The translations under genes were made by a program, and so were the position numbers. 64,000 bases of DNA, from contig OY970274.1 of NCBI GenBank assembly GCA_963715775.1, positions 263,043 to 327,042 on the forward strand, read 5' to 3'. Source of the DNA: an uncultured Solirubrobacterales bacterium (GTDB taxonomy: Bacteria; Actinomycetota; Thermoleophilia; Solirubrobacterales; Solirubrobacteraceae). Shown here piece after piece: positions 465 through 48,193 of the stretch. Position 1 is the stretch's first letter. Each line of letters begins with the position of its first letter. The notes under the pieces are model-generated. The model made no database searches. It had not been told where the DNA came from and was given only the letters and a program-made list of their open reading frames with translations.

Positions 465-2926
465 CGCGGCGCCCGCGTCAGCACGGGCCGCGGCAGGCGC
501 AGCGAGCGCCAGCCCATCAGCACGGCCGCCGGCAGCGCCCACAGGACATAGAAGAGGCTGGTGATGTCGCCGCTATAGGTGAAGTTGACCGGCTCGAAGC
601 TGAGCCACACGAGGACCGATGCCGCGAGCGTGAACAGCGGCGCGCGCCGGCCGCTGCAGACCTCCCAGGCGCCGAGGCTCACGAGGAACGGCAGCTGGTA
701 ATAGATTTCGTTCCAGGGGTCGAGCATCCCGCGCAGCAGCATCGCGAGCGCGAGCACGAGCAGGGCATCGCTGGGTTGTAGACGGCGCCGCCGCAGCCAG
801 TACGCAAAGCCGAGCAGAACCGCGCTCAGCACGGTCAGGGGGCGGCTGTAGGACGCGACGAACGCGATCGGCGCGCGTTCGTAGAACGTGCCTCCCAGAT
901 GGCGCAGTTGGTCGAGGTGCAGCGTCCACCAGATCTGCTGGGGTCGGAAGAAGACGGCGGCGCTGGCGAGGCCCTTGTTGGCCGCCACGAAATGGCCCGT
1001 GTTAGAGAGCGCCAGGGGGGCGAAGAGGATCAGCGCGGCGCCGCCGCAGAGGGCCGAGAAGCGAATCCACTGCTCGCGCGGCGTCGCGGCCAGCGCGACC
1101 GGCAGCGCGAGCAAAGCCCACTGCTTGGAGGCAACCGCCAGCCCCAGCAGGATCGCGCCCGTCGTGATCCGCCCGCGGATTACGAGCAACATGCCGCCGA
1201 CGCACAGCGCGGTCGTCAGCAGTTCCTCCGGGTGGCCGTATTTGAGAGCCCAGTCGCAGGCGGGGCCGGTGATGAGCAGGCCGATCAAGAGCCAGCGGCT
1301 GAGCGCCGGCCCGCCCTCCGAGCGTTGAATCCGCGCGAGGGCCAGCGCCAGCGCCGCGATCGCGATCGCGCAAACGAGCACCTCGAGGCGATAGGCCCCG
1401 CTGAGGCCGCCAAGCGTTCCACCGAGCGCCAGCGCCGGCGCGTTGAGCAATAGCGACCCGCCGTAGATCGGCGCGAGCGCGAGGAAGTCGTGCAGGTTGC
1501 CCGCGATCAGACGTTCCACCGCCGGGCCGGCTTCGTTGAAGAAGTCGCGCCAGATGACCACGCGCATCGAAAGGTAATAGAGCACCCCCAGCATCGCGAC
1601 GGCCACCGCTGTGTCGGCGTAGGCGGGTAGACGGCGATGTATCGTCGTGGGGGTCATATCGGTCTGATCCGGCTTTGCTCGATGAGTGAGCCTGCCCATC
1701 AGCTCCGGCGCGTACAGCCGCAGGGCGAGCCCCACGCCCAGCGGCACGGTCCAGGCCAGGAAGAAGGCAGCCTGGACGTCGGCCGAGACGTGGCCCGGCA
1801 GCCAGACGAAGCTGACCCACGCGAGCACGGTGCTCGACAGCGCGAGCACCGCGGGACGGCGGCGGGACTCGCCGAGGCACTCCCACGCGAGCAGCGCGAG
1901 CACGAACGGGATCGGGTAGTAGACGGTGTCCCAGGTGTCGAGCACGCAGCGCAAGAGCAGCAACAGAGCCAGCAGCAGCAGCGCGTCCGAGCGCCCGCGA
2001 CGTCCGCGGAACCAGGCAAGCGCGGTCAGCGGCAGCGAGACGGCGACGATCAGCGGATGGCTGATCACCCCGACCCAGGCGGGCGCGGTCCGGTAGCCGA
2101 CCTTGACTTCGCCGAACAGGCCGCGCACGGTCGATCCGTGGTGGCCGAGGAACCAGAAGAGCTGCCACGGCTGGAAGATCGTGCTGGGCGGCGCGGCCGC
2201 GCCGCGCGTGGAGGCGACGAACCCGCTCGAGCCGACGAGCGCGAGCGGGGCGAGGACGATCGCAGCGACCGCGCCGGCGCAGCCAATGCAGAGGATCGCC
2301 GGCTTCCAGCCGCGGTTCCAGGCTCGTGCGCCGGGGGAAGGCGCCAGCGCGATCAGCACCGGCCCGACCGCGAGCAGTGCCCACTCCTTGTTCGCGATCG
2401 CCAGGCCCAAAGCCAGCCCGGCCCACAGCGGCCGCTCACGCGCGGCCAGCAGCACCGCGACGACGCACAGCACGCCCCCGAGCAGATCCTCGGGGTGGCC
2501 GATTTCAAGCGCGCGCAGGGTCAGGGGATTGGCGACGCAGATCCCCAGCGCGAGCGCGCGCGCGAGCCTCGAGCCGTCCGGGCGCGCCCGCATCTGCGCG
2601 ACGAGCCATACCCCCAGCGCCGCAGCCGCCAGCAGGCAGGGCAGCGCCACCATCCGGTACACCGCAAGCGCGCCGCCGCCCCACAGCCCCGGCAGCAGCG
2701 CGAACGGCGCGCGCTCGACGAGCGAGCCGCCATAGGCGGGCGCGAGGCGCAGGAACTCGAGCACGTGCCCCTGCGTCAGCGCAGAGAACGCCGGCTTCGC
2801 CTCGGTTTCATAGTCGCTCCAGGTGAAGCCGTACAGCCCGAGCCACGCGATCGTCGCGGTGGCGACGCCCGCCAGGAACGCGCACAGGGCGTTCTCGCGT
2901 ACCAGCGCGCGCATCTGCGGTCTCAT
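416..2926 (-). CDS. Polytopic membrane glycosyltransferase (GT-C, GT87/DUF2029-like) with two tandem homologous domains
   Basis: Both halves carry APxYGGSL, GHPE(D/E)L, GLA(I/V)AxK(E/Q)WAL and DxWxxxYYxxPF; many hydrophobic helices; start taken at ATG 2926 (MRPQMRAL); 3' end overlaps pepQ by 49 bp. Confidence 0.7.
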   Translation of the reverse strand: MRPQMRALVRENALCAFLAGVATATIAWLGLYGFTWSDYETEAKPAFSALTQGHVLEFLRLAPAYGGSLVERAPFALLPGLWGGGALAVYRMVALPCLLAAAALGVWLVAQMRARPDGSRLARALALGICVANPLTLRALEIGHPEDLLGGVLCVVAVLLAARERPLWAGLALGLAIANKEWALLAVGPVLIALAPSPGARAWNRGWKPAILCIGCAGAVAAIVLAPLALVGSSGFVASTRGAAAPPSTIFQPWQLFWFLGHHGSTVRGLFGEVKVGYRTAPAWVGVISHPLIVAVSLPLTALAWFRGRRGRSDALLLLALLLLLRCVLDTWDTVYYPIPFVLALLAWECLGESRRRPAVLALSSTVLAWVSFVWLPGHVSADVQAAFFLAWTVPLGVGLALRLYAPELMGRLTHRAKPDQTDMTPTTIHRRLPAYADTAVAVAMLGVLYYLSMRVVIWRDFFNEAGPAVERLIAGNLHDFLALAPIYGGSLLLNAPALALGGTLGGLSGAYRLEVLVCAIAIAALALALARIQRSEGGPALSRWLLIGLLITGPACDWALKYGHPEELLTTALCVGGMLLVIRGRITTGAILLGLAVASKQWALLALPVALAATPREQWIRFSALCGGAALILFAPLALSNTGHFVAANKGLASAAVFFRPQQIWWTLHLDQLRHLGGTFYERAPIAFVASYSRPLTVLSAVLLGFAYWLRRRRLQPSDALLVLALAMLLRGMLDPWNEIYYQLPFLVSLGAWEVCSGRRAPLFTLAASVLVWLSFEPVNFTYSGDITSLFYVLWALPAAVLMGWRSLRLPRPVLTRAPRYATTVSSLESRVSTS

Positions 2927-3012
2927 AGTTCGGCATCGGCGTCGTGGGGAGCTTGCTTGAGTGTGTTTTCCAAGGCAGCCGGCGTCGATGATGGCTTCAG
3001 TGGCCACGGTCA

Positions 3013-6631: not shown

Positions 6632-9168
6632 GCCTGGCGAACATCCTGTTCCTGTACCGCGCACGGCTGCGGGCGAGGGCGGTGCTCGCGCAGGAGGGGT
6701 TTGCGGTCTTCGGGATCGCAGTCGGTGTGGCGCTGCTGTTCGCCAGTCAGGTGGCGAGCACGAGCCTGTCGAGCTCGGTGACGGCGCTCGATAAGCAGAT
6801 CGTCGGACGCACGCAGTTTCAGCTGCAGGCGAAAGGTCCGGATGGCTTTGACGAAGGTCTGCTCGAACGGGTGCGGCGGGCGCCGGGTGTGCAAACGGCG
6901 TTTCCGATCTTGGAGCAGCAGACCAACGTGATCGGGCCGAGCGGTGAGCGGTCGGTCGATCTGATCGGCGCCGATCCGCGCTTCGCGAGCGTGGGCGGGG
7001 CATTGTTGCGACGGTTTTCCGCCCAGCAGCTCGCTGTTCAGAACGCGATCGCGCTGCCGGCGCCGCTCGCCGGCGAAATCGGTGCGGGCTCGCTGGTCCA
7101 GATCAAGCTCCAGATCGGTGCGCGCGTGGCTACTACTCTGCTCGGCGCGGCGCTGGGCGAAAGCGAAATCGGTGGGCTGGTCCACAGTCCCGTCGCGCTT
7201 GCCCCGATCCACTACGCCCAGCGGTTGGCGGGGATGCGGGGAAGAGTCACACGGATCTTCATCCGCGCCCAGCCGGGACGCGAACGTGAGGTGCAAGCGG
7301 CGCTCTCGACACTCGCCGCGAGCGCGGGCGTGAACCTCGATCCGGCCGATTACGATACGAAGCTGTTCGCGGTGGCGGTGGCGCCCGAGAGTAAAAGCGA
7401 GGCGCTGTTCTCCGCGATCAGCGCGCTGGTCGGTTTTATGTTCGCGCTCAACGCGATGCTGATCACCGTGCCCTCGCGCCGGCGGCTGATCGAGGAGGTC
7501 CGCCCGCAGGGCGCCACGCGGCTGGCGATCGTCCAGATCCTGCTGTTCGACGCCGCCGTGATCGGCCTGCTGGCCTGTGTCCTGGGTCTCGTGCTCGGAG
7601 ACGTTCTGTCGGTCGCCGTCTTTCGCACGACGCCCGGCTATCTGGCGTTTGCATTCCCGGTCGGGGACAACCGGATCGTGACGTGGCAGAGCGTCCTGCT
7701 GGCCGTTGGCGCCGGACTGGCGGCCGCGATCGTGGGGGTGCTCTGGCCGCTGCGCGCGGTCCTCACGCGTCCTCTGCAGACCGGTGATCAGACCGGTGAT
7801 GGGTCCGCAAGCGCCCGGCCGGGTTGGGTTACGGCCAGACTGGCTGTCGGGCTGGCGTGCCTCGCCGTTACGCCGGTCGTCTCGACTGCCCACAACCAGG
7901 GGGCGTTCTTTGGGAATATCACGCTCCTCGTCGCGCTCGTCTGTCTGCTGCCGTTTCTCTTCGATGGGCTCGTGTGGCTGTTCGCACACGCGCAGCGTCC
8001 GCTCAACGGGGCGGCGACCGTGCTCGCGGTCACGGGGTTGCGGACTCCCCAGACCCGAGTGCGCTCGCTGGCGATCGCTGTGACGGCGGCGGTCGCGGTG
8101 TTCGGGGCGGTCCAGTTTCAGGGTATCCAGACGAACCTCACGAACGGCCTCGACGCATCCATACGCGGCATCGACTCGAGCGCCGAGGTGTGGGTCACGC
8201 CGGGCGGGGATTCCAGTCTTCTGTCAACGACTCCCTTTAGTCCGATCGATTCCGCCGCTATCGCTCGTCGCCCGGGAGTCGCCGCGCTCGGTGTGTACCG
8301 CGGCGGATTTCTTGACTGGGGCGCTCGACGCCTGTGGATTCTCGCGCAACCTGCCAGTACTCCGCAACCGATCCCGGTGAGCCAGCTCGTCAGCGGCGAT
8401 CCCGCCTTGGCGGCCATCAGAATCCGTCAGGGCGGCTGGGCGGTGCTCTCCCAAGCACTGGCCGGCGAACACAACCTCCACGTAGGTCAGACGTTCGTGC
8501 TGCCCTCGCAGCACTACATCAAGTTGCGTGTGGCGGCTTTGAGCACGAATCTGGGATGGCCACCGGGCACGATCATCATGAACGCCGCCGATTATGCGCG
8601 CGCCTGGGGGAGCAGCTACCCGAGCGCATATGAGATTCAGACCAGCCCCGGAGCGTCTGCCGTGATGGTCCGCTCCCAAGTACAGCGCGCGCTGGGCCCG
8701 GGAACGGGACTCGTGGTCGAAACCACAGGCGAACGCGAGCGGCGCCACTACGAGCTGGCGGCTCAGGGACTCTCGCGGTTGACGCAGATCAGGCTGCTCG
8801 TGCTGATCGCCGTAGTGCTCGCCGTGACGGGCGCGATGGGCTCGATGCTGTGGCAGCGCCGCGCCCTGGTCGCATTCATGAAGGTGGACGGATACCGCCG
8901 GGGTGTGCTGTGGCGATGGCTGCTGTGTGAGAGCGCGATCCTGCTCGCGGCGGGTTCTTCGATCGGAGCGGTTTTTGGTGTCTACGCGCAACTGCTGGGA
9001 AGCCACTTTCTGGCGAGTGCCACAGGTTTTCCGATCGTGTACAACGTCCAGTGGCTTGCCGCGCTCTCCAGTTTCGCACTGGTCACCGCCTTCACGGTCG
9101 CGGCCACGGCCCTGCCCGGGTATCTCGTAGCGAGGGTGCGTCCCAGGGCCGTCAGTCCTGCCTATTAG
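6628..9168 (+). CDS. ABC transporter permease (FtsX/MacB-like, duplicated)
   Basis: Two repeats of TM1, large extracellular domain and 3 TMs; ATGA overlap with the ATPase stop. Confidence 0.85.
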   Translation: MSLANILFLYRARLRARAVLAQEGFAVFGIAVGVALLFASQVASTSLSSSVTALDKQIVGRTQFQLQAKGPDGFDEGLLERVRRAPGVQTAFPILEQQTNVIGPSGERSVDLIGADPRFASVGGALLRRFSAQQLAVQNAIALPAPLAGEIGAGSLVQIKLQIGARVATTLLGAALGESEIGGLVHSPVALAPIHYAQRLAGMRGRVTRIFIRAQPGREREVQAALSTLAASAGVNLDPADYDTKLFAVAVAPESKSEALFSAISALVGFMFALNAMLITVPSRRRLIEEVRPQGATRLAIVQILLFDAAVIGLLACVLGLVLGDVLSVAVFRTTPGYLAFAFPVGDNRIVTWQSVLLAVGAGLAAAIVGVLWPLRAVLTRPLQTGDQTGDGSASARPGWVTARLAVGLACLAVTPVVSTAHNQGAFFGNITLLVALVCLLPFLFDGLVWLFAHAQRPLNGAATVLAVTGLRTPQTRVRSLAIAVTAAVAVFGAVQFQGIQTNLTNGLDASIRGIDSSAEVWVTPGGDSSLLSTTPFSPIDSAAIARRPGVAALGVYRGGFLDWGARRLWILAQPASTPQPIPVSQLVSGDPALAAIRIRQGGWAVLSQALAGEHNLHVGQTFVLPSQHYIKLRVAALSTNLGWPPGTIIMNAADYARAWGSSYPSAYEIQTSPGASAVMVRSQVQRALGPGTGLVVETTGERERRHYELAAQGLSRLTQIRLLVLIAVVLAVTGAMGSMLWQRRALVAFMKVDGYRRGVLWRWLLCESAILLAAGSSIGAVFGVYAQLLGSHFLASATGFPIVYNVQWLAALSSFALVTAFTVAATALPGYLVARVRPRAVSPAY

Positions 9169-43099: not shown

Positions 43100-43936
43100 T
43101 CAGCCCGTGCGAGCCGCGGCCGGCATCAGCCGCAGGTGCGCGTGGTGCTCGAGCGTCTCCGCGATCGCGCGCTCGACCTGCCCGAGCGCCGGCGCGGGCC
43201 CCCCGGGGATCTCCGTCAGCGGGCGGCCGAGGGCCGCGGTCATGAACTCGTACGCGGCCTCGTCCAGCGGGAACGACGCCGCCTCGCACGCGCCGCACAC
43301 CACGCCGCCGGCGGATCCGGAGAAGCCGACGAGGTGCTCGCGCTCGCCGCAGCAGGCGCACGCGCCGAGCTGGGGCGCCAGGCCGGCCGCGAGCAGCAGC
43401 TTCAGGCGGAATGCGAGCGAGCCGGCGCGGCCGCTCGTAGGGCTGCCGGTCGGCGTAGAGCTGCCGGTCGGCGCCTCGCCCGAGCTTTCCTCGGTGCTAG
43501 ATGGTTGCGCGGTGGGCAAATCCGGCCCGGCGGCCCGATTCATCCCAGTGCTCTGCTCGTCCAGCAAAGCAAGGTGCCGGCACAGCAGGTTGAACACGCC
43601 CGGGTGCGGCTCGCCGGTCTCGAACAGGCGGCCGACCGCGTCGCAGGCGCGCGCGGCGCTGTCCAGCGCGCGCGCGTCGCCGCGCAGGCGTGGATAGGCG
43701 TCGACCGTCTGCGCACCCGTCACCGTCAACAGCTCGCCGCGACCCTCGTGCAGGTCCAGTCGCAGGCGAAAGAACGGCTCCAGGCGACCTCCGAAGCGGC
43801 TGCGGGTGCGCCGGACGCCCTTCGCGATCGCGCTGATCCTGCCGCGGTGGGGGGTGTAGAGGTGGAGGATGCGGTCGGCCTCGCCGTAGCGCATCGATCT
43901 CAGCACCACCGCCTCGGTCTTGACTGGGCCTGCCAT
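43100..43936 (-). CDS. recO: DNA repair protein RecO
   Basis: TEAVVLR...YGEADRI, AKGVRR..SRFGG.LEPF, C..CG..G.VC..C; internal low-complexity insertion. Confidence 0.93.
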   Translation of the reverse strand: MAGPVKTEAVVLRSMRYGEADRILHLYTPHRGRISAIAKGVRRTRSRFGGRLEPFFRLRLDLHEGRGELLTVTGAQTVDAYPRLRGDARALDSAARACDAVGRLFETGEPHPGVFNLLCRHLALLDEQSTGMNRAAGPDLPTAQPSSTEESSGEAPTGSSTPTGSPTSGRAGSLAFRLKLLLAAGLAPQLGACACCGEREHLVGFSGSAGGVVCGACEAASFPLDEAAYEFMTAALGRPLTEIPGGPAPALGQVERAIAETLEHHAHLRLMPAAARTG

Positions 43937-43988
43937 CGGACCGTCGAGTCTAGGCTCGCGGGCGGCGGGCATTTGCGCCATCGTCACA

Positions 43989-44021
43989 AAATTGGCACAG
44001 AATCTGCTGGAAATTGGCACA
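43989..44021. repeat. 11-bp direct repeat with 22-bp period between divergent recO and HNH starts
   Basis: AAATTGGCACA at 43989-43999 and 44011-44021. Confidence 0.8.
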
Positions 44022-44054
44022 TTCTCGGCCGCGAGAGCTGAGACAATAGGATGC

Positions 44055-44768
44055 ATGGATCGCGCTTCTTTGGAGCAGCTGTTGGGGCAGGGGTTGTCGC
44101 TGGCCGAGATCGGCCGGCGGTTTGGGTTGCACGAATCGACCGTTGGCTACTGGGTCGAGAAACATGGGTTGCGGGCGGCCAACCGCGACAAGCATGTGGC
44201 CCGCGGCGGTCTTGCCCGGGAGGATTTGGAATCGCTGATCGAACGAGGCATGTCGATCGCCCAGATTGCGGAGGCAGTCGAGTGCAGCAAGGGGACCGTA
44301 CGCCACTGGCTCCGGCAATATGGTCTGAAAACCCAGGCGCAACGATGGATCGGCGAGGAATCGACGCGCGCGATGAGAGGGGCCGGGAAGGCGACGGTCA
44401 TGCGGGAGTGCCGCAAGCATGGCGTCACCGAGTTTTGGCTCGAGGGTCGTGGCTATTACCGCTGCAAGCGCTGCCGTTTGGAGCGCGTGAGTCGACGCAG
44501 ACGAAAGGTTAAGCAGATCCTGGTAGCCGAGGCCGGTGGATGTTGCGCACTGTGTGGCTACGACCGTTGCGTTGCGGCGCTTCACTTCCATCACCTCGAT
44601 CCCAGCAGCAAGCAGTTTCATCTGAGCATGCACGGCGCCGCTCGCTCGATCGCCTCCGCGCGTGCCGAGATGGCGAAGTGCGTGCTGCTGTGCGCCAACT
44701 GCCACGCAGAGGTTGAGTCGGGGCTCGCGACTCTCGAGACGGATGCAATCCGAAGCGGGCTTGCGTAG
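44055..44768 (+). CDS. HNH endonuclease with two HTH domains and a zinc finger
   Basis: Two IA..(G/C).....V..W....GL HTH repeats; CRKH..YRCKRC; CALCGY..LHFHHLDP..K..KCVLLCANCH. Confidence 0.85.
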   Translation: MDRASLEQLLGQGLSLAEIGRRFGLHESTVGYWVEKHGLRAANRDKHVARGGLAREDLESLIERGMSIAQIAEAVECSKGTVRHWLRQYGLKTQAQRWIGEESTRAMRGAGKATVMRECRKHGVTEFWLEGRGYYRCKRCRLERVSRRRRKVKQILVAEAGGCCALCGYDRCVAALHFHHLDPSSKQFHLSMHGAARSIASARAEMAKCVLLCANCHAEVESGLATLETDAIRSGLA

Positions 44769-44783
44769 AATCTCTGCCTGCGG

Positions 44784-44856
44784 TCCTCGGCAGCTCGATT
44801 GGCCGAGCGCTCGACTGTTAATCGAGAGGTTGTGGGTTCGAGCCCCACCCGGGGAG
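44784..44856 (+). tRNA. tRNA-Asn (GTT) with non-canonical C8, G14, C21; CCA not encoded
   Basis: Acceptor TCCTCGG/CCGGGGA, D stem GCTC/GAGC, anticodon stem CTCGA/TCGAG with CTGTTAA loop, T arm GTGGG-TTCGAGC-CCCAC. Confidence 0.93.
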
Positions 44857-44892
44857 CTGTTTGAAGTCGCTTGGAAGTCCGTCGCGTCCAGC

Positions 44893-46152
44893 CTAAGCCC
44901 GGGCGTGACGGACTCTGAGCGGCGTTCGGCCCCTAACTGACTCTGTTGGTTCGCGCATAGCCAGTTCCTCCACCAGCCCCGCCGCGGCGTCCCCGGCATC
45001 GTGTGAGTCGCCCCACGCCGCTAGCTCCCGCGCCCGCGCCCGAATCGAAGGCTCCTCGAGCGCCCGTTCGACCGCCAGCCGTAGCGGCCGCGGCGAGATG
45101 AACCGCTGCGGTACCCGCACCCCCGCACCGGCCCAGTCAACCCGCGCGGCATTCTCGTTCATGTCGCCGATCGCCGGGCAGGCGACCACGGCGCATCCCG
45201 AGGAGAGCGCGCGTACGAGCGTGCCGTGCCCGGCGTGGCAGACGACGACGTCGCAGCTGGGCATCGTGCGCGCGTAGGAGACCCAGTCGACGATCCTCGC
45301 GTTCGCCGGCACGGGCAGTGGGCGAGGCGGAAGGCGGCGGTTCCAGGTCGCGAGCACTCGCACGGGCGCGTCGGCCAGTCCGCGCAGGGCGGCATGCAGC
45401 ATCCGGTGCGTCGGGTCCTGTGCCGTCGAGGGCGCGACGAGCACGAGCGGCTCGTCACCCGGCGGGAGCTCGACGTCGGCGGCCGGGGGCTCCCACATCA
45501 GCGGGCCGACCACGTGCGCGTGCTCCGGCCACACGCGCGGGTACTCGAGCTGGGGAAACGTCGCGACGAGCGCAAGCTGGCGGCTGGTGCCGCCGTGGGT
45601 ATGGTCCAGGGGCGGCAGGTCTACGCGCGCGCGGGTGTCGTTCAGCTGGGCGCGGCCGAGCTGCAGGCCGTGCTCTAGCGGTCGGCCGGCACGACGCCAG
45701 AATGCGCGGCCGGCTGCCGTCCGCGGCAATCGCGCGCCGAGCGAGTAGATCGGCAGGCCGGGCTCGCCCTCCGGGAAGACGTGGGGGATCAGCGTCGCTT
45801 GGGGGACGCCCTCGAGCTCGGCCGCGAGGGCGGGGGCGAGCGTGAGGATGTCGGCGACGACGACGTCGGGTTCGAGCTCGGCGACCAGAGGAAGGGTGTC
45901 GCGCGTGGCGTGGACGACCGCCTCGTAGAAGTCAAGCGGCTCCGGTCCCGTCGGGAAGACGTGGTACTCCGGCGCGGGGGAGAAGGACAGGCCCTCGGCC
46001 TCGATCGGCGCGCGCCAGCGCTCCCACGTCTGCACCGTCACCTCGTGCCCGCGCGCGGCGAGTGCCTTGCCGAGGGCGATGATCGGGAAGGCGTGTCCGG
46101 GATCGCCGAAGGCGCCCAGCAGCACCCGCAACGTTGGCCTCACTGGCGACAC
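44893..46152 (-). CDS. GT1 family glycosyltransferase (MGT/UGT-like)
   Basis: GD.GH.FP..ALG..L.ARGHEV, DWVSY...VVCHAGHGT. Confidence 0.88.
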   Translation of the reverse strand: MSPVRPTLRVLLGAFGDPGHAFPIIALGKALAARGHEVTVQTWERWRAPIEAEGLSFSPAPEYHVFPTGPEPLDFYEAVVHATRDTLPLVAELEPDVVVADILTLAPALAAELEGVPQATLIPHVFPEGEPGLPIYSLGARLPRTAAGRAFWRRAGRPLEHGLQLGRAQLNDTRARVDLPPLDHTHGGTSRQLALVATFPQLEYPRVWPEHAHVVGPLMWEPPAADVELPPGDEPLVLVAPSTAQDPTHRMLHAALRGLADAPVRVLATWNRRLPPRPLPVPANARIVDWVSYARTMPSCDVVVCHAGHGTLVRALSSGCAVVACPAIGDMNENAARVDWAGAGVRVPQRFISPRPLRLAVERALEEPSIRARARELAAWGDSHDAGDAAAGLVEELAMREPTESVRGRTPLRVRHARA

Positions 46153-48119: not shown

Positions 48120-48193
48120 GGGCCTGTAGCTCAGCTGGTTAGAGCAGCGGACTCATAATCCGTCGGTCCCTGGTTCGAGTCCAGGCAGGCCCA
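48120..48193 (+). tRNA. tRNA with CAT anticodon, most likely tRNA-Ile2 (lysidine)
   Basis: Cloverleaf GGGCCTG/CAGGCCC, loop CTCATAA; G1-C72 excludes initiator; C4-G69 and C5-G68 are TilS determinants. Confidence 0.92.

Follow-up and report, generated by a model that had tools for sequence, protein, structure and literature searches.

U8, A14 and A21 are the textbook invariant anchors of the tRNA L-shape, a role that is also written into tRNA-finding software and modification biology. Coordinated exchange of interacting core bases is known from classical tertiary covariation, such as Levitt's 9-12-23 triple and the 15-48 contact, which occurs as G-C or A-U. The tRNA-Asn(GUU) gene described here resembles these cases in that such a swap appears to preserve the L-shape, but the bases exchanged are those of the 8-14-21 triple, which is normally regarded as invariant. 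The gene lies at positions 44784 to 44856 of the stretch under study (64,000 nucleotides from an uncultured Solirubrobacterales bacterium, hereafter the window), encodes C8, G14 and C21 in place of the three anchors, and is preceded by a gene for a protein with two helix-turn-helix (HTH) motifs and a putative HNH nuclease domain. The explanation that fits best overall, and which is considered reasonably probable, is a working sole tRNA-Asn with an alternative core, mobile in a homing-like cassette of nuclease and tRNA. It offers a natural case of an essential single-copy elongator tRNA in which all three anchors are replaced and for which evolutionary intermediates are supplied.

The canonical 8-14-21 triple is classed as tWH/cWS (PMC3287178). 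An alternative is seen in the crystal structure of Aquifex aeolicus tRNA-Sec, where G14:C21 forms a Watson-Crick pair in an extended D-stem and U8 is docked on C21, replacing the U8:A14 pair, and in archaeal tRNA-Sec, where C8 contacts the neighbouring D-stem pair (PMC3711452). Genome-encoded C8 is known from Methanopyrus kandleri, in 30 tRNA species of which it is edited by CDAT8 (PMC3695527). No description of a C8-G14-C21 elongator tRNA was found in the open literature searched; most subscription journals lay outside this search and a prior description is possible. Positions 8, 14 and 21 are not discussed in the tRNA-array paper PMC8421152. As for nucleases, SegB of phage T4 (GIY-YIG family) sits in a tRNA gene cluster, cuts within the tRNA gene region and drives the preferential inheritance of the cluster (PMC2330249), MobE of T4-like phages is an example of free-standing homing by an HNH enzyme (PMC2790892), and nuclease genes are reported to mark the boundaries of exchange between phages (PMC10448857).

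The tRNA-Asn gene and its core

The gene and its altered positions are as follows.

44784 to 44856, plus strand: tRNA-Asn(GUU), allele type C (defined below), no encoded CCA (ARAGORN, Rfam, whole-genome tRNA list)
44787 to 44788, plus strand: acceptor-stem positions 4 and 5, with partners 69 and 68 at 44852 and 44851; double-sided compensatory variation among the variant alleles
44791, plus strand: C8, replacing the near-universal U8 (T in every relative with the canonical allele)
44797, plus strand: G14, where A14 is canonical; possible Watson-Crick partner of C21 (sequence, RNAfold pair probability)
44804, plus strand: C21, where A21 is canonical; in the genus every C8 or G14 allele has C21

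Direct reading of the window gives a gene of 73 nt with the 5′ part TCCTCGG-C-A-GCTC-GATTGGCC-GAGC, in which A9 precedes the D-stem GCTC/GAGC and GATTGGCC is the D-loop. The bases that the sequence-only reading had assigned to positions 8, 14 and 21 are exact, as are its statements that all four stems are intact and that G18G19, the T loop (TTCGAGC) and A15 (44798) with U48 (44831) are kept. The acceptor stem has 7 bp with a single wobble, U4.G69, the anticodon loop is CTGTTAA, the variable loop AGGTT (5 nt), the T arm is normal and the discriminator base is G. ARAGORN reports tRNA-Asn(GTT) at 44784-44857 and the Rfam model RF00005 gives 53.7 bits, above its gathering score of 29, vs 73.2 bits for the tRNA-Met at 48120. 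The gene has the 7/4/5/5-bp cloverleaf, GUU anticodon, G18G19, T-loop consensus and above-threshold Rfam score of an elongator tRNA-Asn, and departs from it in the U8-A14-A21 triple, a near-universal feature which does not define membership. A scan for sigma-70 promoters around the gene found none, and no plausible terminator, a result that is uninformative for Actinomycetota.

The genome is a single contig of 3.196 Mb (68% G+C, 94% complete), and among its 48 ARAGORN calls no other tRNA has a GTT anticodon, which answers the question raised earlier of whether another Asn tRNA gene exists; nor does any other have G14 or C21. Asparaginyl-tRNA synthetase (AsnRS) was not found in the genome, where the best asnS-like gene is a non-discriminating aspartate--tRNA(Asn) ligase of archaeal type (NF003483, 482 bits) and GatB is also encoded. 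As AsnRS is absent, Asn-tRNA should be made by transamidation on the window tRNA-Asn, where the non-discriminating aspartyl-tRNA synthetase (ND-AspRS) would load Asp and GatCAB would then amidate it. The bacterial transamidation route reads U1-A72 and the D-loop of tRNA-Asn (PMC2811023), and the substrate features of ND-AspRS and GatCAB are all kept, namely U1-A72, G73, the GUU anticodon, the 8-nt D-loop length and the lack of an extra D-loop base. From its sequence and setting the gene is almost certainly the functional, sole asparagine tRNA of the genome.

The architecture of the core is indicated by the ensemble prediction of RNAfold (ViennaRNA), in which G14-C21 pairs with a probability equal to that of the four D-stem pairs, giving a 5-bp D-stem and a 6-nt loop. 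The G14-C21 Watson-Crick pair would lengthen the D-stem to five pairs and leave a D loop of six bases, and C8 would dock on it in place of the U8:A14 reverse-Hoogsteen pair, much as U8 does in bacterial tRNA-Sec. Common to this gene and A. aeolicus tRNA-Sec (PMC3711452) are a G14-C21 that extends the D-stem and a pyrimidine at position 8 to dock there; positions 14 and 21 covary, both within the genus and across the background tRNA set described below, and the exact U8-G14-C21 combination of bacterial tRNA-Sec also occurs in the genus (G085). In other respects the gene is not a tRNA-Sec. It is a 7/5 class I elongator, not one with 8/5 or 9/4 arms, has a 5-bp D-stem with a 6-nt loop instead of 6 bp with 4 nt, a short variable loop instead of a long extra arm, and C instead of U at position 8, and it retains A15-U48. 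The three-dimensional arrangement suggested by this analogy and by the covariation, a tRNA-Sec-like core within an ordinary class I tRNA with G14-C21 paired and C8 docked, is judged likely.

Only the pair probabilities were used from RNAfold, and the minimum free energy predictions of full tRNAs are partly non-cloverleaf, with the 5′ strand of the D-arm pairing with the T loop. It may be mentioned here that nt 10-15 of the variant D-arm (GCUCGA; 44793-44798) are fully complementary to nt 55-60 of the T loop (UCGAGC; 44838-44843), which yields the competing folds of these predictions, and that the variant T loop has C60 where the other two allele types have U60.

A different account of C8 would have it edited post-transcriptionally to U8 as in M. 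kandleri, which would bring the mature tRNA closer to the canonical form. That organism provides the precedent for a genome-encoded C at near-invariant position 8, but its C8 goes with canonical A14 and A21 and U8 is restored by the enzyme (PMC3695527), whereas in the present case C8 co-varies with G14 and C21, and the triple is limited to one tRNA of the genome. CDAT8 also needs a THUMP domain, and neither ThiI nor any other THUMP-domain protein, nor a CDAT8-like enzyme, was found in the genome, so that neither 4-thiouridine at position 8 (s4U8) nor CDAT8-type editing is expected. Editing of C8 is highly improbable. An explanation through s4U8 was dropped with the failure to find ThiI, and the role of U8 as the s4U site, raised by the sequence-only reading, is moot in this genome.

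Alleles in the genus and recurrence of the triple

The relatives of the source genome (G000) are mostly soil metagenome-assembled genomes (MAGs) of Solirubrobacteraceae, and many of the genomes compared are nanopore MAGs. An initial sample of 40 relatives held canonical tRNA-Asn only, which was a sampling effect; in a sample of 400 genomes from this very large genus the C8-G14-C21 tRNA-Asn is present in at least 22 further species, as 17 distinct sequences. Natural intermediates also occur, with U8-G14-C21 in G085, C8-A14-C21 in G224 and U8-A14-C21 in G239. The states of positions 8/14/21 present in the genus are UAA, UAC, UGC, CAC and CGC, and none of CAA, UGA and CGA was seen in the genus sample, G14 and C8 being confined to alleles with C21.

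Across the variant allele family (19 distinct sequences) there are double-sided changes at pairs 3-70, 4-69, 5-68 and 31-39. Pair 4-69 occurs as U.G, C-G, G-C or U-A and pair 5-68 as C-G or G-C, U1-A72 is invariant, and a stem mismatch is present in just 2 of the 19. In its sequences the family carries the signature of a tRNA selected for its fold. The suggestion made from the window, that the three changes reflect compensation and not decay in a functional tRNA with an alternative core, is borne out by the sole copy, the conservation across species, the compensatory changes, the intermediates and the tRNA-Sec precedent.

The same data bear on the possibility of a sequencing or assembly artefact, or of a decaying pseudogene with the real tRNA-Asn elsewhere. 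The MAG-like source of the assembly and an Rfam score below that of a typical tRNA would agree with this, but identical bases are found in the assemblies of 22 other species from several projects, the stem changes are compensatory, and the single-contig genome has no second GTT tRNA; such an error is hardly credible.

The genus has three tRNA-Asn alleles, these being type A, which is canonical, type B, with the canonical triple and a bulged D-stem, and type C, with C8-G14-C21. In type B the 3′ strand of the D-stem carries an extra U, so that GCUC faces GAUGC, examples being L087 (G383), near position 7067, and L002. The type B gene is the sole tRNA-Asn of many species of the genus, and a bulge of this kind is in itself uncommon in an essential tRNA. 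Differences between the alleles concentrate at tRNA gene positions 4-24, affecting acceptor positions 4/5, positions 8, 14, 16, 17 and 20/21 and the inserted U, and outside this interval changes are limited to compensatory partners. The anticodon loop and stem are identical between types B and C.

Every type B allele (loci L085-L099, L108, L111-L114, L002-L005, L007-L009 and L278) also has a direct duplicate of the tRNA 5′ end, 15 nt long and abutting the gene at positions -15 to -1, which is absent from the window. It mostly ends in GCTCGA, corresponding to nt 1-15 of a U8-G14 allele, so that the junction follows nt 15, in the D-loop. These duplicates look like scars of break repair, and may alternatively be a functional leader. 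Similar 5′-end fragments are present at -15 to -33 in other lineages with a linked HNH gene (L019, L026/L296, L276, L277, L279).

Outside the genus, a pattern scan was made over one genome per species for 185,579 species, with a pattern of C8, A9, GCTC, G14, GG, C21, GAGC and a T-arm motif at fixed distance, which restricts it to one D-stem sequence. It gave at least 120 matches, and 107 of the 120 matches listed are ARAGORN tRNAs. Of these, 26 are tRNA-Asn of Actinomycetota (mostly Solirubrobacterales). The remaining 80 or so include 16 tRNA-Ile(UAU) from Pirellulaceae or elsewhere in the Planctomycetota, a phylum that also contributes several tRNA-Arg, together with tRNA-Arg(UCU) from Micromonosporaceae and tRNAs for Thr, His, Met and more. 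C8-G14-C21 tRNAs were also identified in 27 phage contigs of IMG/VR, mostly with large tRNA arrays. The triple is accordingly not unique to this gene, since more than 100 other tRNAs from many phyla and phages carry it. Its recurrence in the tRNA-Ile(UAU) of Pirellulaceae, the tRNA-Arg of Micromonosporaceae and Planctomycetota and the phage arrays points to a second way of building the tRNA core that has been under-appreciated.

Among 525 other tRNAs in these loci, a non-independent background set in which arrays and phages are over-represented, G14 is present in 9 of the 19 tRNAs with C8 vs about 2% of those with U8, and CGC is the commonest combination with G14, occurring with five other D-stem sequences.

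Two of the bacterial groups appear as conserved C8-G14-C21 lineages, namely the tRNA-Ile(UAU) of Pirellulaceae and other Planctomycetota (L137, L140, L148, L149, L158, L174, L194, L199, L204, L205, L211, L213, L226 and others) and the tRNA-Arg(UCU) of Micromonosporaceae (L129, L138, L164, L185). The phage contigs (L305-L331) have 12-35 tRNA genes per locus, with C8-G14-C21 in Arg, Ile, Met, Cys, Val, Thr and Ala tRNAs.

The presence of such tRNAs in phage arrays could point to selection at the RNA level for escape from a tRNA-cleaving toxin or defence nuclease, and conflicts between phage and host over tRNA cleavage are documented, one example being Septu, which cuts tRNA-Tyr (PMC13096335). 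At this locus the evidence speaks against it. Pfam searches of the neighbouring genes gave no tRNase or toxin gene near the tRNA-Asn, the anticodon loop and stem, which are the usual targets, are unchanged between types B and C, and near-identical genomes tolerate any of the three alleles. HNH enzymes are, as a rule, DNases. Escape at the RNA level is very unlikely, and nothing was found in support of the anticodon- or tRNA-targeting toxin proposed by the sequence-only reading.

The HTH-HNH gene and the exchanged cassette

The surroundings of the tRNA comprise the following features.

43100 to 44056, minus strand: recO, conserved left flank (Pfam RecO_N/RecO_C, synteny)
44055 to 44768, plus strand: gene for a putative HTH-HTH-zinc ribbon-HNH endonuclease of 237 aa (Pfam, PHROG, Cys/His motif, AlphaFold)
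44230 to 44980, no strand: allelic cassette, the tRNA with the 3′ half of the HNH gene before it and the spacer after it (sliding-window identity against G383)
44409 to 44723, plus strand: predicted zinc-ribbon and HNH nuclease domain, residues C119 to G223 (invariant columns, weak fold matches)
44769 to 44783, plus strand: 15-nt spacer from the HNH stop codon to the tRNA; almost every intact type C cassette has 14-15 nt here
44893 to 46152, minus strand: GT1-family glycosyltransferase, conserved right flank (Pfam, synteny)

The start codon of the HNH gene is most likely the ATG at 44055, the longest open reading frame (ORF) beginning at 43920. In its product two HTH motifs (Pfam HTH_38, HTH_23) precede a zinc ribbon of the form CxxH...CxxC and the HNH core, and the protein matches phrog_2255 'HNH endonuclease' (E 2e-30) and phrog_3106 (E 7e-24). 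The invariant columns are C119, H122, C137, C140, C164, C167, H179, H180, C213, C216 and H217, and none of the zinc-ribbon, HH and CxxCH motifs varies among 29 homologues which span all three allele types. By sequence the protein has the HNH motif, zinc-binding Cys pairs and DNA-binding module of a free-standing HNH homing endonuclease. In the AlphaFold model (predicted local distance difference test score, pLDDT, 84) the N-terminus resembles bipartite HTH DNA binders. NCBIfam gives weak HTH or transposase-like matches below the cut-off, and a PDB sequence search gives just a weak match to the HTH of a terminase small subunit. The family has more than 6,700 metagenomic relatives, annotated as 'transposase' (JGI) or 'helix-turn-helix domain-containing protein' (NCBI). 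This public annotation of the relatives of the window gene (44055-44768; relatives P0001-P0120) misses both the nuclease domain and the association with tRNA-Asn.

Homologues were identified in 30 of 301 genomes of a class sample, one of these being the source genome itself. Their distribution is patchy by family, with 10 of 23 genomes in one (f1), 14 of 26 in another (f4) and none of the 166 genomes of three others. In 24 of the 29 non-self loci, from several families of Solirubrobacterales, the homologue lies 0-85 nt from the tRNA-Asn gene, and truncated copies adjoin tRNA-Lys or tRNA-Glu. In some families of the order (L284, L287, L288, L297) the tRNA-Asn beside the HNH gene runs the other way and has a markedly different D-stem, AUGU/ACAU. 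Of the 61 syntenic loci (60 genomes and the window), 10 lack the HNH gene and about 15 have it in partial or frameshifted form. The gene is missing or degraded in many genomes with intact dnaG, and is dispensable.

A second neighbourhood of this kind, independent of the first, was noted in a Chloroflexota MAG (L160). Its C8-G14-C21 tRNA-Asn at 1912-1985 is followed, within a few hundred bases, by an ORF (frame 1443-2978, plus strand) in which the same HNH motif occurs twice, with 57% identity across the domain.

The history of the locus was followed in 14-kb syntenic regions of the 60 genomes, with dnaG, dGTPase, recO, HTH-HNH, tRNA-Asn, GT1, a luciferase-like gene, SDR and tRNA-Met, the trees being run in the quick mode of IQ-TREE. 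In a tree of six flanking proteins (2,256 columns) the alleles are interleaved, the variant needing 16 changes vs a mean of 16.9 for shuffled labels, and the approximately unbiased (AU) test rejects monophyly of the variant carriers (difference in log-likelihood 3132, p 6.5e-5). A tree of GatB, encoded 280 kb away, gives the same species groups and again rejects monophyly of variant carriers (p 4e-69); in it a clade of G008, G052, G209 and G335 with branch lengths of at most 0.02 contains all three alleles, and the tight clade of the source genome mixes types C and B. In the tree of the HNH protein the 14 copies linked to the variant all fall in a single clade, and 3 changes suffice for the three allele types. 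This match of clade and allele type means that nuclease lineage and tRNA allele are inherited together.

The extent of the exchanged unit can be seen in pairs of close genomes. Identity between G209 (type C) and G008 (type A) is 92-99% in the flanks and falls to 65-71% between roughly -300 and +200 of the tRNA start; between G000 and G383, the closest type B species, it is about 90% in the flanks and 55-69% over window positions 44230-44980. What is exchanged is the tRNA with the 3′ part of the gene upstream of it and some 100 nt of spacer. In near-identical genomes the difference is confined to some 500-900 bp. In the same genomes, a sample chosen by tRNA-Asn, the tRNA-Met 3.3 kb away has 16 variable columns vs 35 in the tRNA-Asn and its D-arm is nearly invariant. 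These sequence comparisons make it very probable that the HNH 3′ part and the tRNA are swapped between species by homologous recombination, as a recombining cassette.

Because near-identical genomes carry any of the alleles, one and the same ND-AspRS, GatCAB, EF-Tu, RNase P and ribosome must be able to work with all three. The genus in effect offers a natural allele-swap experiment, with near-identical genomes running on canonical, bulged or C8-G14-C21 tRNA-Asn, and the tolerance of the tRNA core becomes directly testable.

An integrative element or genomic island at the tRNA was also considered and rejected, as there is no integrase among the neighbours, the variation is 5′-sided and the synteny from recO to GT1 is conserved.

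Homing and near-neutral explanations

The carrier genome in phage homing systems is protected by polymorphisms in the target. On this model the HTH-HNH protein would be a free-standing homing nuclease with a putative DNA target within the 5′-terminal third of the tRNA-Asn gene. Changes at tRNA gene positions 4-24 would shield the carrier's own copy from cleavage. As the tRNA is essential, only changes compensated in the RNA would survive, such as paired stem changes and the coordinated swap at 8/14/21, and the unusual tRNA-Asn alleles would be immunity variants constrained to stay functional.

The likeness to homing lies in the fixed position by a conserved gene, the patchy and degenerate copies, the phylogeny discordant with that of the host and the exchange tracts that always include the neighbouring marker. 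As with SegB and MobE, the nuclease gene stands beside and not inside a conserved gene, here the presumed target, shows presence/absence polymorphism at a fixed locus and spreads horizontally with co-conversion of the adjacent marker. The HTH-HNH gene differs from them in residing on a bacterial chromosome and not in a phage, in the combination of two HTH motifs, zinc ribbon and HNH, and in a locus that is stable across an actinomycete order. That the putative nuclease targets the tRNA-Asn gene and drove its changes is the favoured but tentative reading, the cleavage specificity and the escape both being inferred. More tentative still is the wider proposal of a chromosomal HNH homing family targeting the tRNA-Asn gene of Solirubrobacterales, whose arms race with its target would repeatedly have forced an essential tRNA to alter its gene sequence but not its fold, giving the alleles with rebuilt core and bulged D-stem, now moving as cassettes. 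If this is true, the order-wide pairing of HNH gene and tRNA-Asn and their joint exchange would add bacterial chromosomes to phages as a setting of 'intronless homing', and a selfish nuclease would be able to shape an essential RNA.

The alternative to be weighed most closely is that the triple is near-neutral, one of few viable replacements for U8-A14-A21 and with no causal link to the nuclease. It would have arisen by stepwise drift from A21 to C21, then G14, then C8, and have spread by ordinary recombination at a hot spot, the HTH-HNH gene being a passenger or a domesticated DNA-binding protein. The intermediates of the genus agree with such drift. The triple is found in many unrelated tRNAs, phyla and phages away from this nuclease, which shows that the nuclease is not required to produce it. 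Type C also persists where the HNH gene is lost (L070, L073) or present only as remnants (L061, L080), and canonical type A alleles adjoin intact HNH genes.

These same distributions count against a nuclease-driven origin, and formally break the link as the sequence-only reading had framed it, which was to fail if the variant also occurs without the nuclease. As loss of a selfish nuclease gene after fixation is expected, type C without an HNH gene does not settle the role of the nuclease. Further points on the same side concern the protein, the core and the sample. The Pfam HNH model is marginal on the protein (E 0.06, below normal thresholds), and the matches of its C-terminal fold to the HNH domains of Cap5, IscB and VcaM4I are weak (VIA-align Z 3.5-4.3, Foldseek E >0.1), Foldseek giving no match to the whole model at E <= 0.001; such matches are consistent with an HNH nuclease, not decisive. 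The contact proposed for C8 is drawn by analogy from a tRNA-Sec with U8 and a longer D-stem, and may need protonation of the C or another geometry. The 60 compared genomes were picked by tRNA similarity and not randomly, and some of the HNH frameshifts may be errors of nanopore assembly.

A near-neutral triple would, however, leave unexplained why the HNH family stands beside tRNA-Asn in most non-self loci of several families, why allele type tracks HNH clade instead of species, why exchange tracts always span the HNH 3′ end and the tRNA, why the D-arm of tRNA-Asn is far more variable than that of the neighbouring tRNA-Met, and why scar-like 5′ duplications are present. It is regarded as rather unlikely. 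What remains of the nuclease link drawn by the sequence-only reading is a link at the DNA level, with tRNA allele and HNH 3′ part co-inherited and exchanged and the family placed by tRNA-Asn across the order, though not in the form there pictured.

Elsewhere in the source genome, outside the window, there are two near-identical copies of tRNA-Trp(CCA) at genome positions 3175049-3175122 and 3176877-3176950, 1.75 kb apart, which differ at position 8 (U8 vs C8) and have A14 and A21 in both. Between them lies an ORF with an excisionase-like HTH, and the arrangement resembles a small integrated element flanked by a tRNA duplication.

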